From an uncultured Candidatus Rokubacteria bacterium (lineage in GTDB: Bacteria > Methylomirabilota > Methylomirabilia > Rokubacteriales > CSP1-6): 64,000 bases of DNA. The stretch lies in contig CAVXJS010000014.1 in NCBI GenBank assembly GCA_963762145.1, positions 384,001 through 448,000 of the forward strand, in the 5' to 3' direction. The translations under genes and the position numbers were made by a program. Below are positions 22,437 through 36,327 of the stretch, piece by piece; position 1 is the stretch's first letter, and every line of letters begins with the position of its first letter. A model generated the notes under the pieces. That model was not told where the DNA came from, made no database searches, and saw only the letters and a program-made list of their open reading frames with translations.

Positions 22437-23843
22437 CTACTGGCGGCGGCGGAGCATCTGCTGGAGGCTCTGGCGGGTCAGGCCGAGGCGCTCGGCGGCC
22501 CGCGTCTTCGAGCCGCACTCCCGGAGCGCGTCCTCGATCATGCGCCGCTTGAGCTGCTCGATCGCCTCGTCGAGCGTCTGGGCCGCCGGCGCCTGCGCGG
22601 CCCCCGCGACGATCCGCTCCGAGAGGTGCTCGGGCGCGAGCGGCTGGCCGTCGTCGGCGAGCGCCACCGCGCGCTCGATCTCGTTCTCCAGCTCGCGCAC
22701 GTTGCCCGGCAACGGGTAGGCGCGCAGGAGGCGCAGGGCCTCGGCGCCCGATCGCCGGGACCGCGCGCCGGGCGCTGGCGGCACGCCTGGCGCAGGAAGT
22801 GCTCGGCGAGCGCCGGGACGTCCTCGGCGCGCTCGCGCAGGGGCGGCAGCGCGGATCGGGAACACGTTGAGCCGGTAGTAGAGGTCGCGCCGGAAGCGGC
22901 CGGCCGCCGACGTCGGCCTCGAGGTCGGCGTTGGTCGCGGCGATCACGCGCACGTCGACCTTGCGCGATCGCTGGTGCCGCCGACCCGCCGCACCTCGCC
23001 CTCCTGGAGCACGCGCAGGAGCCGGAGCTGCATCGCGGGCGAGGTCTCGCCGACCTCGTCGAGGAAGATCGTGCCGCCGTCGGCCTCCTCGAAGAGGCCC
23101 TTGCGCTCGCCGGTGGCGCCGGTGAAGGCGCCGCGCGCGTGGCCGAACAGCTCGGACTCGAGCAGCGACTCGGGCAGGGCGCCGCAGTTCTGGGCCACGA
23201 AGCGGCTTGGCCCGGCGGGGGCCGTTGTCGTGGATCAGGCGCGCGAAGAGCTCCTTGCCGGTGCCGGTCTCGCCGAGCAGCAGCACGGTGGTGTCGCCGT
23301 CGAGCACCTTGCGCGGCCAGCTCGACCGCGCGCGCGCAAGCCCGTCCGCCGCGCCCACCAGCGCGTCGAACGACGGCGGGCTGCTCGCGCGCCTCGGCCG
23401 CCTCGCGCCGCAGCGTGTTGTAGGCCAGCTCGAGCTCGTCGCGCAGGCGCGCGTTCTCCCGCGGCGAGCCGCCAGCGCTCGGCCGCGCGGCGCACGACCA
23501 CGAGCAGCTCGTTCGGATCCCAGGGCTTGGGCACGAAGTGGTAGATGCGGCCGGTGTTGATCGCCTCCATCAGGCTGTCGACGTCGGTGTAGGCGGTGAG
23601 CACGATGCGCACCGCGTCGGGCGCGAGCTCCTGGCTGCGGCGCAGCAGCTCGACGCCGGTCATGCCCGGCATCCGGTAGTCGGTGACGATGACCGCCACG
23701 TCCGGCTCCGCGGCGAGCAGGCGCGAGCGCCGCGCTCGCCGTGTCTCGGCCCGGAGCACCCGGAACTCGGCGGCGAGGATGGCCTCGAGCGCGTCGAGCA
23801 CGCGCGGCTCGTCGTCCACGACGAGGACCGTCGTCTCGTCCAC
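22437..23843 (-). CDS. Sigma54-dependent response regulator (REC-AAA+-Fis HTH), multiply frameshifted
   Basis: Consecutive frames give VLVVDDE...TDYRMP...LTAY...FVPKPW (REC), [46 protein letters not shown] and a [17 protein letters not shown]. Confidence 0.88.
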
Positions 23844-23859
23844 CGTCTGCTCCCGGGGC

Positions 23860-25048
23860 AGGGTTCCGTCACCGGCGGCGCGGTGACCGCGGCCGCCGCC
23901 TCGCGGAGGCCGAGGATCTCGTAGAGCGTCTCGCGATCCTTCATGCCCTTGAGCTTCGGCGAGCCGAGCTCGCGATACCGCACGAGGTCCTCGACCTCGC
24001 CGGAAGGTGCCTCCTCGGCGGCGATGATATGCGCGTCGAACAGGCGTGTCATGCGCTGGATGCGCGCGGCCGCGATCATGGGCCGCCCCACCACGATCAG
24101 CTCGCGGCGCTCGGCGGAGCCGATCGTGCCCGCCATCACCGGGCCCGAGGCGATCCCGACGCCGATGTCGAAGCGGGGCAGGCCCTCGGCGGCCCAGCGC
24201 GCGGCGAGGCGCCGGACCGCCGCCACCATGTCGATGGCGGCGCGCACCGCCCGCGCCGGCGCGTCCGGGCCCGTCCTCGGTGCACGCCGAACAGCACGAC
24301 GATCTCGTCGCCGATGAGCTGCTCGACCGTGCCCTGGTGGCGGAAGATCACCTCGATCATCTCGGCGAGGTACCCGTCGAGGAGGCGGATGACCACGGGC
24401 CCGGGCGTGGTCTCGATCAGGCGGGTGTAGCCGCGGATGTCGGCGAAGAGCACGGTGGCCTCGCGCCAGTCGCCGGTGCGCGGGCAGGAGCTCGGGGTTG
24501 CCGAGCGCCATGTCGGCGAGCCGGGGCGAGACGTAGCGCTGGAGCTGGGCGCGCACCGAGGCCTCGCGGACCAGCGCGGTCCTGGGTCGGCCCGCAGGTG
24601 GCGAGGGTCTGCCTCGAGGTCGGCGTTCTTCGCCGCGAGGTCGCGCAGCGAGCTGCTCGCGCTCGCTCGCGCAGGCGATGGCGCTCCACGCCGCGGCCGG
24701 ACGGTGTGACGGAGCTCCGTGGGGTCCCACGGCTTGAGGAGGAAGTGGTAGATGTTCGCCGCGTTGATCGACTCCATCAGCGCGTCGGCGTCGGTGAAGG
24801 CGGTGAGGAGGACGCGCACCGCGTCGGGCGCGACCTCGCGGCGCGCGGGTCAGCAGCTCGGTGCCGCGTCATCCCGGGCATGCGCTGGTCGCTCACCACG
24901 ACCGCGACCTCCTCCCGGCCGAGGAGGTCGAGGGCGGCGGCGGGCCGGTCGGCCCGCAGCACGCGGTAGTCCATGGCGAGCAGCGCCTCGAGGGAGTCGA
25001 GCACCCGCGGCTCGTCGTCGACGAGGAGGACGGTCGCCTGGCGGTCAC
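23860..25048 (-). CDS. Response regulator receiver fused to class III nucleotidyl cyclase-like domain (frameshifted; 3' end approximate)
   Basis: REC domain (VSDQRMP, LLTAFTD, LLKPWD), then LQRYVSP, TVLFADIRGYT, IGDEIVVLFG, GVGIASG, ARIQ, KLKG. GTG overlaps the kinase stop. Confidence 0.8.
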
Positions 25049-34834: not shown

Positions 34835-35897
34835 ATGTCACCCGAGCAGGTAACCCTGGATCCCAGAGAAGGTGGAAGAGTTCCTCGGCAAGGCCATTCA
34901 GGACGTCGCGGCCACGTTCCATGCCGGCCTCGTGCTCATCGGCGACAAGCTCGGCCTGTACCGCGCGATGGCCGGGGCCGGCCCGCTGATTCCCGCCGAG
35001 CTCGCCCAGCGCACCGGCACGCGCGAGCGGTACGTGCGCGAGTGGCTGTCCTCGCAGGCGGCCGGCGGCTACGTCACCTACGATCCGGCGACCGGCCGCT
35101 TCACGCTGCCCCCGGAGCAGGCCTTCCTGCTGCTCGACGCGGATCTGCCCGGCGCGTTCCAGCTCAGCGTGGGCTCGGTGCGCGACGAGCCGCGGATCGC
35201 GGATGCCTTCCGCACCGGCGAGGGCGTGGGCTGGCACGAGCACGACGCCGGCGTGTACGAGGGATGCGAGCGTTTCTTCCGTCCGGGCTACGCCATGAAT
35301 CTCGTCAGTCAGTGGATTCCCGCCCTCGACGGCGTGAAGGCCCGGCTCGAGGCGGGCGGCCGGGTGGCCGACGTGGGCTGCGGCCACGGCGCTTCGACCA
35401 TCATCATGGCGCAGGCGTACCCGCGCGCGACGGTCACCGGGTTCGACTACCACACCGCTTCCATCGAGGCCGCGCGGCGCGCCGCCGACAAGGCCGGAGT
35501 GGGCGACCGGGTGTCCTTCGAGGTGGCGCCCGCGAAGGCGTACCCGGGAAGCGGCTACGATCTGGTCACCTTCTTCGACTGCCTGCACGACATGGGCGAC
35601 CCGGTGGGGGCGGCGCGCCACGTGCACAAGTCGCTCGGCCCAGGAGGCGCGTGGATGCTGGTCGAGCCGTTCGCCAACGACCGGCTCGAGGACAACCTCA
35701 ACCCGGTCGGTCGGCTGTACTACTCGGCGTCGACCTTGCTCTGCACGCCGGCGTCGCTCAGCCAGGAAGTGGGCCTGGCGCTGGGAGCCCAGGCCGGAGA
35801 GCAGCGCCTGCGCGGGGTGCTGAACGAGGCGGGCTTCACGCGCGTGCGGCGGGTGGCGCAGACCCCGGCCAACATGGTCCTCGAGGCCCGGGCCTGA
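34835..35897 (+). CDS. Class I SAM methyltransferase with N-terminal winged helix (Rv2258c-like; frameshift near 34870)
   Basis: IGDKLGLY, ERYVREWL, VADVGCGHG, FFDCLHDMGDP, STLLCTP, LGAQAGE. Confidence 0.88.
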
Positions 35898-35940
35898 CGG
35901 CTTGAGCCCGAGTGTAGAGAGAGAGAGAGAGGAGCCCATC

Positions 35941-36327
35941 ATGCGCATATCCAAGGGTCAGATTCCCGCCAAGATCAATGTCCCCGGCGCGGTCGCGCGT
36001 GTAGCCACCGACTTCGGTGACGCAACCGGCTTCGGCAAGCTGGGAGGCGAGTACTTCTCTCTCGGCGCCGGCACCGACATCGCACCGCTGTTGAAGGGGC
36101 TCAAGGACGATGCCTGCCACGCGCCGCACTGGGGTTACATGCTCTCCGGAGAGCTCGTGGTCACGTACACGGACGGCAAGGTCGACGCGTGCAAGGAGAG
36201 CGACCTGTTCTACTGGCCGCCCGGTCATAGCGTGCGGGTGATCAACGATTCCGAGGTCATCCTGTTCAGCCCGCAGCGTGAGCACGTCCACGTCATGGAC
36301 CACATGCTGAACGCGATGAAAAGCTGA
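35941..36327 (+). CDS. Cupin-domain protein
   Basis: LLKGLKDDACHAPHWGYMLSG...LFYWPPGH. Confidence 0.8.
   Translation: MRISKGQIPAKINVPGAVARVATDFGDATGFGKLGGEYFSLGAGTDIAPLLKGLKDDACHAPHWGYMLSGELVVTYTDGKVDACKESDLFYWPPGHSVRVINDSEVILFSPQREHVHVMDHMLNAMKS

Follow-up and report, generated by a model that had tools for sequence, protein, structure and literature searches.

A conserved, likely self-activating two-component sigma-54 operon with hydrolase-glycosyltransferase fusions in soil Methylomirabilota

Among described two-component systems, the closest relatives of the locus treated here are NtrBC, AtoSC and ZraSR, in which a HisKA/HATPase kinase is paired with an activator built of a receiver (REC), an AAA+ domain with the GAFTGA loop and an HTH_8 domain, and in which the regulators are encoded in the operon to be activated, behind a -24/-12 promoter and upstream palindromes. 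We found the same anatomy in an uncultured Candidatus Rokubacteria bacterium (phylum Methylomirabilota), at positions 22437 to 36327 of a 64,000-nucleotide (nt) stretch, hereafter the window, which has a GC content of 70% and lies on contig 14 of a 6.26-Mb genome assembled in 25 contigs and 88% complete. The regulatory logic of kinase, NtrC-type activator and self-activated sigma-54 operon is already familiar, but the Rokubacteria kinase carries a new cytoplasmic sensor without sequence matches in Pfam or the PDB, a second receiver protein, bearing an atypical cyclase domain, is a constant member, and the cargo is an uncharacterised enzyme fusion of an alpha/beta hydrolase with a glycosyltransferase (ABH-GT). 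On balance, we consider it rather probable that this is a conserved two-component sigma-54 operon of soil Methylomirabilota, likely self-activating, whose cargo is predicted to act on a small hydrophobic molecule by de-esterifying or opening it and then glycosylating it, and whose apparent frameshifts are assembly errors.

Gene order and domain content of the two divergent operons agree with the initial annotation, made from the sequence alone, when Pfam is run on the open reading frames (ORFs) of the window and on the intact orthologues of a genome of the same genus (G017). From 33116 to 22437 on the minus strand, a ROK-family kinase is followed by ABH-GT1, ABH-GT2, an OsmC-like protein, a GAF-HisKA-HATPase kinase, a REC-Guanylate_cyc protein and an activator with REC, Sigma54_activat, lid and HTH_8 domains; from 33477 to 36327 on the plus strand lie the genes of a small exported protein, an alpha/beta hydrolase, an HTH_65 methyltransferase-fold protein and a cupin. 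A literature search returned nothing on a system with such an architecture, in keeping with the first impression that none had been described. New elements of this work are a phylum-wide definition of the core module, a demonstration that the breaks in its genes arose in assembly, the match of the sensor domain to a zinc motif, the separation of two fusion lineages, the OleD-type affinity of their glycosyltransferase (GT) and a census of their neighbours in other phyla.

Regulatory wiring and the conserved core

Each of the divergent operons had been credited with a -24/-12 promoter, and both elements are present, TGGCACACTGCTTGC at 33131-33145 (minus strand) and GGGCACGGCGCTTGC at 33415-33429 (plus strand). 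The former is the sole perfect match to TGGCAC-N5-TTGC in the window, where 0.03 would be expected (the whole genome has 57), and both are invariant in seven aligned genomes, the plus-strand one as GGCACG..G.TTGC. With GG at -24, GC at -12, fixed spacing, conservation upstream of the operon and rpoN present in the genome, they have the features of sigma-54 promoters. Across genera, GGCAC-N5-TTGC stands just upstream of the ROK gene in 20 of 31 testable loci, and several of the remaining 11 carry variants with one mismatch, as judged by eye. The palindrome GCAAG-N5-CTTGC, allowing one mismatch, lies upstream of the ROK promoter in 29/31 loci (exact in 19), compared with 0/31 for a control of the same length inside the ROK gene; its offset is conserved across loci, and a second copy is often found ~68 nt further up. 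A wider regulon reached through this palindrome was considered and rejected, since the genome holds seven matches against 5.8 expected; without such enrichment, the circuit appears to be local.

The activator belongs to the NtrC class of bacterial enhancer-binding proteins, having a Sigma54_activat AAA+ domain, the GAFTGA loop and a Walker A motif (in the G017 orthologue, PF00158 matches positions 2-167 at 4.5e-67 and GETGTGKE is present), together with a receiver (Response_reg, 8.5e-20) and a Fis-type HTH (HTH_8, 1.4e-6). We take its segment TDHRMPGM to be the phospho-acceptor site. Its best NCBIfam resemblances are to AtoC, NtrC and ZraR, all with scores below the equivalog cutoffs. From the anatomy of promoter, palindromes and operon, we infer that the activator would bind the palindromes and activate its own operon. 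The autoregulated sigma-54 wiring proposed at the outset is supported by promoters and a palindrome conserved across genera, by rpoN and by the position of the activator gene inside its own operon, and is very probably a new variant of the NtrBC-type self-activated operon.

The locus and its flanks are syntenic in genomes of the same genus, at 73-88% nucleotide identity. In the phylum, the sensor domain of the kinase occurs in 46/251 genomes (17/104 of those of high quality, 20/68 genera and 16/20 genomes of the window's genus) and the GT domain in 49/251. An ABH-GT gene lies within ~2 kb of the kinase, on the same contig, in 42 of the 46 sensor genomes; the exceptions are G197, where the two fall on two contig ends, G012, where only a fragment of the GT is seen, at the end of a contig, and G028 and G042, in which none was found. 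Partners were counted by tblastn with the G017 proteins over the 46 neighbourhoods, many of them cut by contig ends, and were OsmC in 42, ABH-GT in 41 (plus two partial), the cyclase in 36 (plus one partial), the activator in 33 (plus two partial) and ROK in 33 (plus one partial), the right-hand genes being rarer (methyltransferase-fold gene 12, stand-alone hydrolase 11, small exported protein 10). The conserved core is made of ROK, one ABH-GT of the GT1 type, OsmC, the sensor kinase, the REC-cyclase and the sigma-54 activator. Accessory genes are those of the second fusion, the stand-alone hydrolase, the methyltransferase-fold protein and the cupins, and the right-hand operon is essentially restricted to the window's genus. 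The co-occurrence survey called for in the initial annotation thus shows that the core genes recur, as in the kinase and ABH-GT pairing, but its picture of the whole locus as one self-contained module does not hold, given a right-hand operon in only 10-12 of 46 loci and a tandem pair of fusions (two GT copies) in ~13 genomes. The tight pairing of kinase and enzyme (42/46) offers a way to find the ligand.

The features of the locus, in window coordinates, are as follows.

22437..23870, minus strand: sigma-54 activator (REC, AAA+ with GAFTGA, lid, HTH_8), from Pfam and tblastn; start approximate
23870..25040, minus strand: REC plus a class III cyclase domain of atypical kind; interrupted by insertions, both ends approximate
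25036..27304, minus strand: sensor histidine kinase, with a cytoplasmic N-terminal sensor of ~195 amino acids (aa) (H-NOX/V4R fold, C-E-C-C motif), hydrophobic hairpin, GAF, HisKA and HATPase; broken by insertions, 3' end approximate
27311..27874, minus strand: OsmC-like protein with one Cys, intact in the window; from Pfam and alignment to PDB 2opl
27930..30027, minus strand: ABH-GT2 (alpha/beta hydrolase plus GT1-type glycosyltransferase), widespread lineage; start approximate
30033..32115, minus strand: ABH-GT1, kinase-linked lineage of the ABH-GT fusion; 3' end approximate
32124..33116, minus strand: putative ROK-family sugar kinase, 331 aa, intact, without a DNA-binding domain; Pfam ROK 1.2e-51
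33131..33145, minus strand: sigma-54 -24/-12 promoter TGGCACACTGCTTGC, 14 nt before the ROK ATG
33188..33202: exact palindrome GCAAG-N5-CTTGC, a candidate site for activator binding whose centre lies ~76 nt upstream of the inferred transcription start
33255..33269: another copy of this palindrome, differing at one position, GCAAGGTGAGATTGC
33415..33429, plus strand: GGGCACGGCGCTTGC, the sigma-54-type promoter of the divergent operon, ahead of GGAGG and the ATG at 33477
33477..33857, plus strand: small exported protein with a signal-peptide-like N-terminus and weak cupin similarity; frameshift soon after the ATG, end approximate
33945..34752, plus strand: stand-alone alpha/beta hydrolase, ~268 aa, in three frames in the window; ends approximate
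34872..35897, plus strand: winged-helix (HTH_65) plus class I methyltransferase-fold protein, intact, motif I DVGCGHG
35902..36327, plus strand: small cupin, spanned by identical short-read contigs
36348..36392: perfect inverted repeat of ~21-22 bp in the gap where the cupin and amidohydrolase genes converge

Some variation around this plan was observed. The -12 element lies 14 nt from the ROK ATG in the window's genus, which would leave the transcript with little or no leader; in other genera the ROK promoter is placed 10-25 nt further upstream. Upstream of the plus-strand promoter, between 33330 and 33415, the window is ~75 nt shorter than its relatives (alignment columns ~375-450), and a third GCAAG-N5-CTTGC-like palindrome is part of the stretch it lacks. 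A CMD/AhpD-like gene, YciW-related by NCBIfam below the cutoff, stands between ABH-GT2 and OsmC in 3/46 loci (G017, at L023:11615-12025, G002 and G006) and is absent from the window. At the place of the terminal cupin the syntenic relatives have none; G005 has a 65% homologue, with ABH-GT2 on one side and the kinase on the other, and four loci of other phyla have weaker relatives of it next to ABH-GT. In G021 (L026, 9355-9954 and 11670-12269), two copies of the sensor kinase are found side by side.

Breaks in the deposited reading frames

The frameshifts pointed out in the initial annotation are real in the record: tblastn with the G017 proteins finds the window copies of activator, cyclase, kinase, both fusions, small protein and stand-alone hydrolase split over three to five frames each, the activator being read in four frames owing to inserted bases, ABH-GT1 spread over at least five, and ABH-GT2 (93% to the database protein P0003) broken near its start and once internally. 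On the flanks, the luciferase-like monooxygenase and the amidohydrolase are unbroken and share 88% and 95% aa identity with their G017 counterparts. These frameshifts are errors of the assembly, not of the organism. Against the aligned relatives, 77 insertions or deletions (indels) are unique to the window, 67 of which are not multiples of three, and the aligned flanks have two and zero. Sixty-five are insertions, nearly all of a single base and outside homopolymers, and only 12 are deletions. When the window is projected onto the G017 columns, OsmC, kinase, cyclase and activator become open genes without internal stops at 74-87% aa identity to G017; the activator shows 0 stops and 87% identity, and the apparent TGA at 22944 is gone. 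Short-read contigs from soil (four runs of two studies) closely match the window for long stretches (in one case 1,330 nt with a single difference), and all 12 of the indel rows listed, out of 70 for those runs, are bases left out relative to the window at mapped indel places; likewise, bases are left out in 11 of the 12 indel rows listed for four further runs from two other studies. Substitutions between the window and these contigs are mostly G>C and C>G.

Frame switches were counted genome-wide with a codon-phase hidden Markov model, long-ORF coverage having been dropped because wrong frames stay open in DNA of 70% GC and the measure failed to discriminate. The 2,246 stop-less switches are clustered in scattered patches on every large contig, with a median of 2 and a 95th percentile of 18 per 14 kb; the locus has 25, a figure reached by 1.9% of 14-kb windows along the genome. 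The 21 other full-length activator genes of the genome have no stop and no break. A cluster of pseudogenes decaying in this strain, its frameshifts being true mutations, would also explain why most genes are split over several frames, why the density of breaks is within the top 2% of the genome and why the orthologous locus looks similarly fragmented in the few-contig genomes G008, G023, G173, G185 and G242. We nevertheless consider it very improbable, and real pseudogenisation of the locus nearly excluded: natural gene decay in bacteria is biased towards deletions, the reverse of the 65 to 12 found here, no stops remain once the insertions are projected out, independent short-read contigs are without the extra bases and differ mostly by G>C and C>G, and the fragmentation follows few-contig assemblies rather than lineage.

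Few-contig genomes from metagenomes can thus hold dense local patches of insertion errors that mimic pseudogenes and feed chimeric read-through proteins into databases. P0004, a public protein of 1067 aa from another assembly, looks like one, as the end of ABH-GT1 is read through into ABH-GT2 with long out-of-frame stretches; such chimeras inflate the apparent number of longer fusions. One of its out-of-frame stretches begins at the same point as in the window. The gene past the amidohydrolase, at 37321-38860 on the plus strand, is likewise split over four frames.

Sensor domain, fusions and partner proteins

The folds of H-NOX domains, the MopR sensor, VirS and TRAPP subunits belong to one class, in which H-NOX domains are recognised by an invariant proximal His and the heme-propionate motif Y-x-S-x-R, and the zinc site of MopR includes a Glu ligand. 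The first ~195 residues of the kinase match no Pfam family at E <= 5, the V4R model included, and nor is there a sequence match to solved V4R members; a profile of the domain gave only a chance match among PDB sequences. It was found only in the kinase architecture of ~750 aa (393 matches, in proteins of 433-1381 aa), every named match being from Methylomirabilota or Rokubacteria. A model built from a 12-sequence alignment (predicted local distance difference test, pLDDT, 88.9) has H-NOX domains as its best fold matches, with template-modelling scores (TM) of 0.6-0.7 and all of the top 27 matches at E <= 0.001, followed by MopR (TM 0.37), VirS and a TRAPP subunit. In the same alignment C149, E172, C175 and C183 are invariant, giving three Cys plus a Glu, and the spacing of the Cys (26 and 8) is that of C155, C181 and C189, the zinc cysteines of MopR as named in the molecular-dynamics methods section of PMC9556785. 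Neither an invariant His nor Y-x-S-x-R is found in the 12 aligned sequences (H44 is kept in 11), and the lack of an invariant His speaks against a heme H-NOX. Two hydrophobic stretches, judged by eye, follow the domain.

The sensor is thus a new family with a modelled H-NOX/V4R fold and a predicted MopR-type zinc motif, and the name of V4R-like given to it at first is apt for fold and Cys motif but not at the level of the family profile. With the phenol sensors XylR, DmpR and MopR it shares the fold class, the three-Cys spacing and an output to a sigma-54 activator; in MopR, however, the sensor sits on the activator itself, whereas here it sits on a membrane-anchored kinase, and the TM of only 0.37 and the unmatched Pfam V4R model set the two apart. 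H-NOX proteins and their partner kinases are the best structural matches and also resemble this system in having a histidine kinase that signals to several receiver proteins, one of them a nucleotide cyclase, but the present domain lacks the invariant His and any sequence similarity to them, is fused to the kinase and carries the Cys/Glu zinc-type motif.

The ABH-GT fusion is widespread. All 8,000 candidates scored in a word-indexed search were significant, 944 representative clusters were found at E <= 1e-30, and at least 592 loci were confirmed among species representatives of five or more phyla, which include Methylomirabilota, Actinomycetota, Chloroflexota, Dormibacterota and Gemmatimonadota; no curated NCBIfam family covers the fusion. 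Its model (pLDDT 94.9, predicted template-modelling score, pTM, 0.94) has two Rossmann-like halves in the GT part, and the pTM implies a fixed arrangement of the two domains. The hydrolase half (residues 1-280) resembles aryl esterases or perhydrolases, non-heme haloperoxidases, the enol-lactonase PcaD and C-C hydrolases, as well as an esterase that degrades acyl-homoserine lactones. It has a Ser-Asp-His triad (S103, D230 and H258, invariant in a 16-sequence alignment) and a fold with TM of 0.85-0.87 to its targets, and among the matches listed for the whole fusion there are only hydrolases. The branch of PcaD, aryl esterases and non-heme haloperoxidases is the best match in both sequence and fold, with Ser, Asp and His kept; the difference lies in the fused GT and in the nucleophile elbows, which are C-K-S-R-S and A-F-S-C-A instead of the canonical G-x-S-x-G.

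Leloir enzymes of family GT1 have an N-terminal catalytic His near the first glycine-rich loop, and in 42 fusion sequences G304-L305-G306-H307 and D311 are nearly invariant. The GT half, which has a GT-B fold with a C-terminal half for binding nucleoside diphosphate (NDP) sugars as in GT1, is nearest to OleI/OleD (1e-9, over the C-terminal half) and then to Kcn28, CalG1-4 and YjiC, all ahead of MurG, with weak matches to Pfam Glyco_tran_28_C and the NCBIfam MGT subfamily. The likeness to OleD/OleI/MGT, CalG and YjiC thus comprises the GT-B fold and a C-terminal NDP-sugar half aligned at E values of 1e-9 to 1e-5; unlike those, the GT here stands behind an alpha/beta hydrolase in a rigid two-domain protein, and its scores are far below the cutoffs. 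Stand-alone homologues of ~400 aa also exist. These affinities, of the GT half to OleD, CalG and YjiC and of the hydrolase half to aryl esterases and enol-lactonase, agree with the earlier proposal of enzymes acting on small molecules. The idea of a RhlA/RhlB-like glycolipid synthase gained no support, with a single rhamnosyltransferase match at E = 0.08.

A FastTree phylogeny of 113 intact copies, from which those with stops or with alignments shorter than 600 aa (the two of the window among them) were left out, places 32 kinase-linked GT1-type copies, all from Methylomirabilota, in a long-stemmed clade with support of 100, and groups ten GT2-type copies with 71 from other phyla, the split also having support of 100. 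Because the two types fall in separate clades, the tandem pair is not a recent duplication, and by their sequences the two fusions are old, distinct lineages. In other genomes (80 loci kept), the neighbours of ABH-GT include a TetR gene directly upstream in 21, OsmC in 13, a large LuxR-type ATPase regulator in 10, a methyltransferase-fold gene in nine by clustering or 12 by tblastn, and SBP56 in nine. This homologue of the 56-kDa selenium-binding protein (L094:5229-6581, E = 9e-185), often accompanied by a TetR gene, lies within ~1 kb of a single-copy ABH-GT in those nine loci.

Among the partners, the ROK protein starts at the ATG at 33116, seven residues before the ROK domain (PF00480, 1.2e-51), and has the motifs DVGAST, GEIGH and CVCGGVAC. 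It is without an N-terminal winged helix and falls below the cutoff of the glucokinase subfamily (NCBIfam), so that its sequence reads as that of a putative sugar kinase and not of a repressor; the repressor was rejected because the long ORF is over-extended and no DNA-binding domain follows from the true start. OsmC/Ohr peroxiredoxins carry two catalytic Cys. The OsmC-like protein (Pfam 1.2e-14; OsmC-related (seleno)protein of NCBIfam below the cutoff) has one Cys in 175 residues aligned with PDB 2opl, as had been annotated, and shows Ser-Pro at a position where Cys-Pro would be expected; it does not have the two Cys of those peroxiredoxins. Class III cyclases use two metal-binding Asp, a base-specifying Lys or Glu, and a transition-state Asn and Arg. 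The cyclase here keeps both Asp and the Arg and has Gln in place of Lys/Glu and Ile in place of Asn (compared with 6fht and 2w01), so it lacks the full residue set of the class and the epithet of atypical is a fair one.

The methyltransferase-fold protein is similar over its full length to TnmJ (3e-56) and Rv2258c (5f8c, 2e-44) in the PDB and has HTH_65 (7e-15) and Methyltransf_31 (1.2e-17) domains, by which it appears to be Rv2258c-like, with the S-adenosylmethionine (SAM) motif I DVGCGHG kept. The first description of it as a winged-helix methyltransferase is right as to HTH_65, class I fold and SAM motif; methyl transfer is not certain, because TnmJ, its nearest solved relative, is described as acting as an oxygenase in a passage of PMC11415531. 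The likeness to TnmJ and Rv2258c consists of the full-length similarity, the HTH_65 Rv2258c-like domain and SAM motif I, and the difference from TnmJ is that no enediyne or other scaffold genes are near the window's locus. Of the "exported cupin" that opens the right-hand operon, the small exported protein stands; cupin similarity is only sub-threshold in the window and absent from the G017 orthologue, the protein having no Pfam match at E <= 5 and no usable match in the ESM Atlas.

Proposed function and alternatives

As we envisage it, the cytoplasmic domain of the kinase, of V4R/H-NOX fold and zinc type, would bind a small ligand, upon which the kinase would phosphorylate two receiver proteins. 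The REC-AAA+-HTH activator would then bind the GCAAG-N5-CTTGC sites ~76 and ~144 nt upstream and open the sigma-54 promoter of the ROK-led operon, which encodes the kinase and the activator and would in this way give positive feedback; in the window's genus the divergent promoter would be opened too, and the atypical REC-cyclase could serve as a second output or a phosphate sink. The ABH half would cleave an ester or lactone and the OleD-like GT half would add a sugar from an NDP-sugar, the ROK kinase perhaps feeding the sugar pool and the one-Cys OsmC, methyltransferase-fold protein, cupins and second hydrolase acting as helpers or in tailoring steps. That the cargo hydrolyses and glycosylates a small hydrophobic ester or lactone is a tentative but quite possible reading, to which we are led by family resemblance, by the TetR and sensor-kinase contexts and by the absence of scaffold-forming genes.

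Several observations weigh against this picture. Kin genomes are not independent counts, the chemistry rests on family resemblance with every NCBIfam match far below its cutoff, TetR adjacency is seen in only 21/80 loci, and the ROK kinase and OsmC would fit a sugar or stress pathway as well as detoxification. The best folds for the sensor are those of heme H-NOX domains (TM 0.6-0.7), MopR reaching only 0.37, and the Pfam V4R model does not match it. The palindrome, no commoner in the genome than by chance, lends no support to a wider regulon; the Shine-Dalgarno-like GGGAG of ROK would lie upstream of the expected start site and so would not be transcribed; and near the plus-strand promoter the window lacks a palindrome found in relatives. 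Four presumed-RNA runs gave short contigs at 95-99% on parts of the locus, in which DNA is possibly present, and hence they are uninformative on expression.

The same genes could instead make a glycosylated or acylated metabolite on demand (a glycolipid, protective glycoside or signal), with the ABH half as acyltransferase or thioesterase, the GT building the glycoside, ROK supplying the sugar, and the methyltransferase-fold protein and cupins tailoring the product. The nearest relatives of the GT do include the tailoring enzymes CalG1-4 and Kcn28, TnmJ and RedM, to which the methyltransferase-fold protein is closest, are likewise tailoring enzymes, the sugar kinase is conserved in 33/46 loci, and BBE-type and flavin oxidases and an aminotransferase are among the neighbours in other phyla. 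Nevertheless, neither the recurrent neighbours nor the window's locus include polyketide synthase (PKS), non-ribosomal peptide synthetase (NRPS), terpene or fatty-acid genes, RhlA/RhlB-like glycolipid synthesis finds no support in the lone rhamnosyltransferase match, and a TetR gene directly upstream (21/80) or a dedicated sensor kinase is more typical of a response to an outside compound; we therefore regard biosynthesis as unlikely. Less probable still is a response to redox or gas stress, in which the H-NOX-fold sensor would respond to NO, O2 or some signal derived from peroxides, OsmC (with CMD/AhpD in some genomes) and a perhydrolase-like ABH would handle peroxides, and glycosylation would be a side function. 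This is suggested by the 27 H-NOX domains that head the fold matches of the sensor, by OsmC as the most constant partner (42/46) and the CMD/AhpD-like gene in 3/46 loci, by the resemblance of the ABH half to perhydrolase-type aryl esterases and non-heme haloperoxidases, and by that of both receivers to an NCBIfam response-regulator family named for nitric oxide, below its cutoff. It is opposed by the lack of an invariant His to ligate heme (H44 being kept in only 11/12 sequences), by the invariant Cys/Glu motif, whose Cys match the MopR zinc cysteines as given in the methods section cited above, and by an OsmC with one Cys only, and it leaves without a role the most conserved cargo, the 690-aa fusion with its OleD-like GT.

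Returning to hydrolysis and glycosylation in response to a ligand, a bolder version, which we consider somewhat unlikely, would be that the ~690-aa ABH-GT fusions are a large, unrecognised two-step family with which soil bacteria inactivate lactone or ester antibiotics or signals, and that Rokubacteria have put one lineage of them under the control of a dedicated new sensor kinase, of zinc type and V4R/H-NOX fold, which detects the same compound and drives a sigma-54 circuit that amplifies itself and has a cyclic nucleotide as a side output. Should the fusion indeed open and glycosylate lactones or esters, it would represent a new class of compound-inactivating enzymes in the soil resistome and a useful biocatalyst. 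The hydrolase-GT1 fusion family, the new sensor domain of the kinase and the constant, atypical REC-cyclase are the unstudied parts of the system.

As for its limits, the inverted repeat at 36348-36392, which has a tiny loop and is more AT-rich than its surroundings, is probably a two-way terminator marking the end of the locus. Elsewhere in the window, at 52193-52705, short ORFs with high GC at third codon positions (GC3) are interrupted by in-frame stops.

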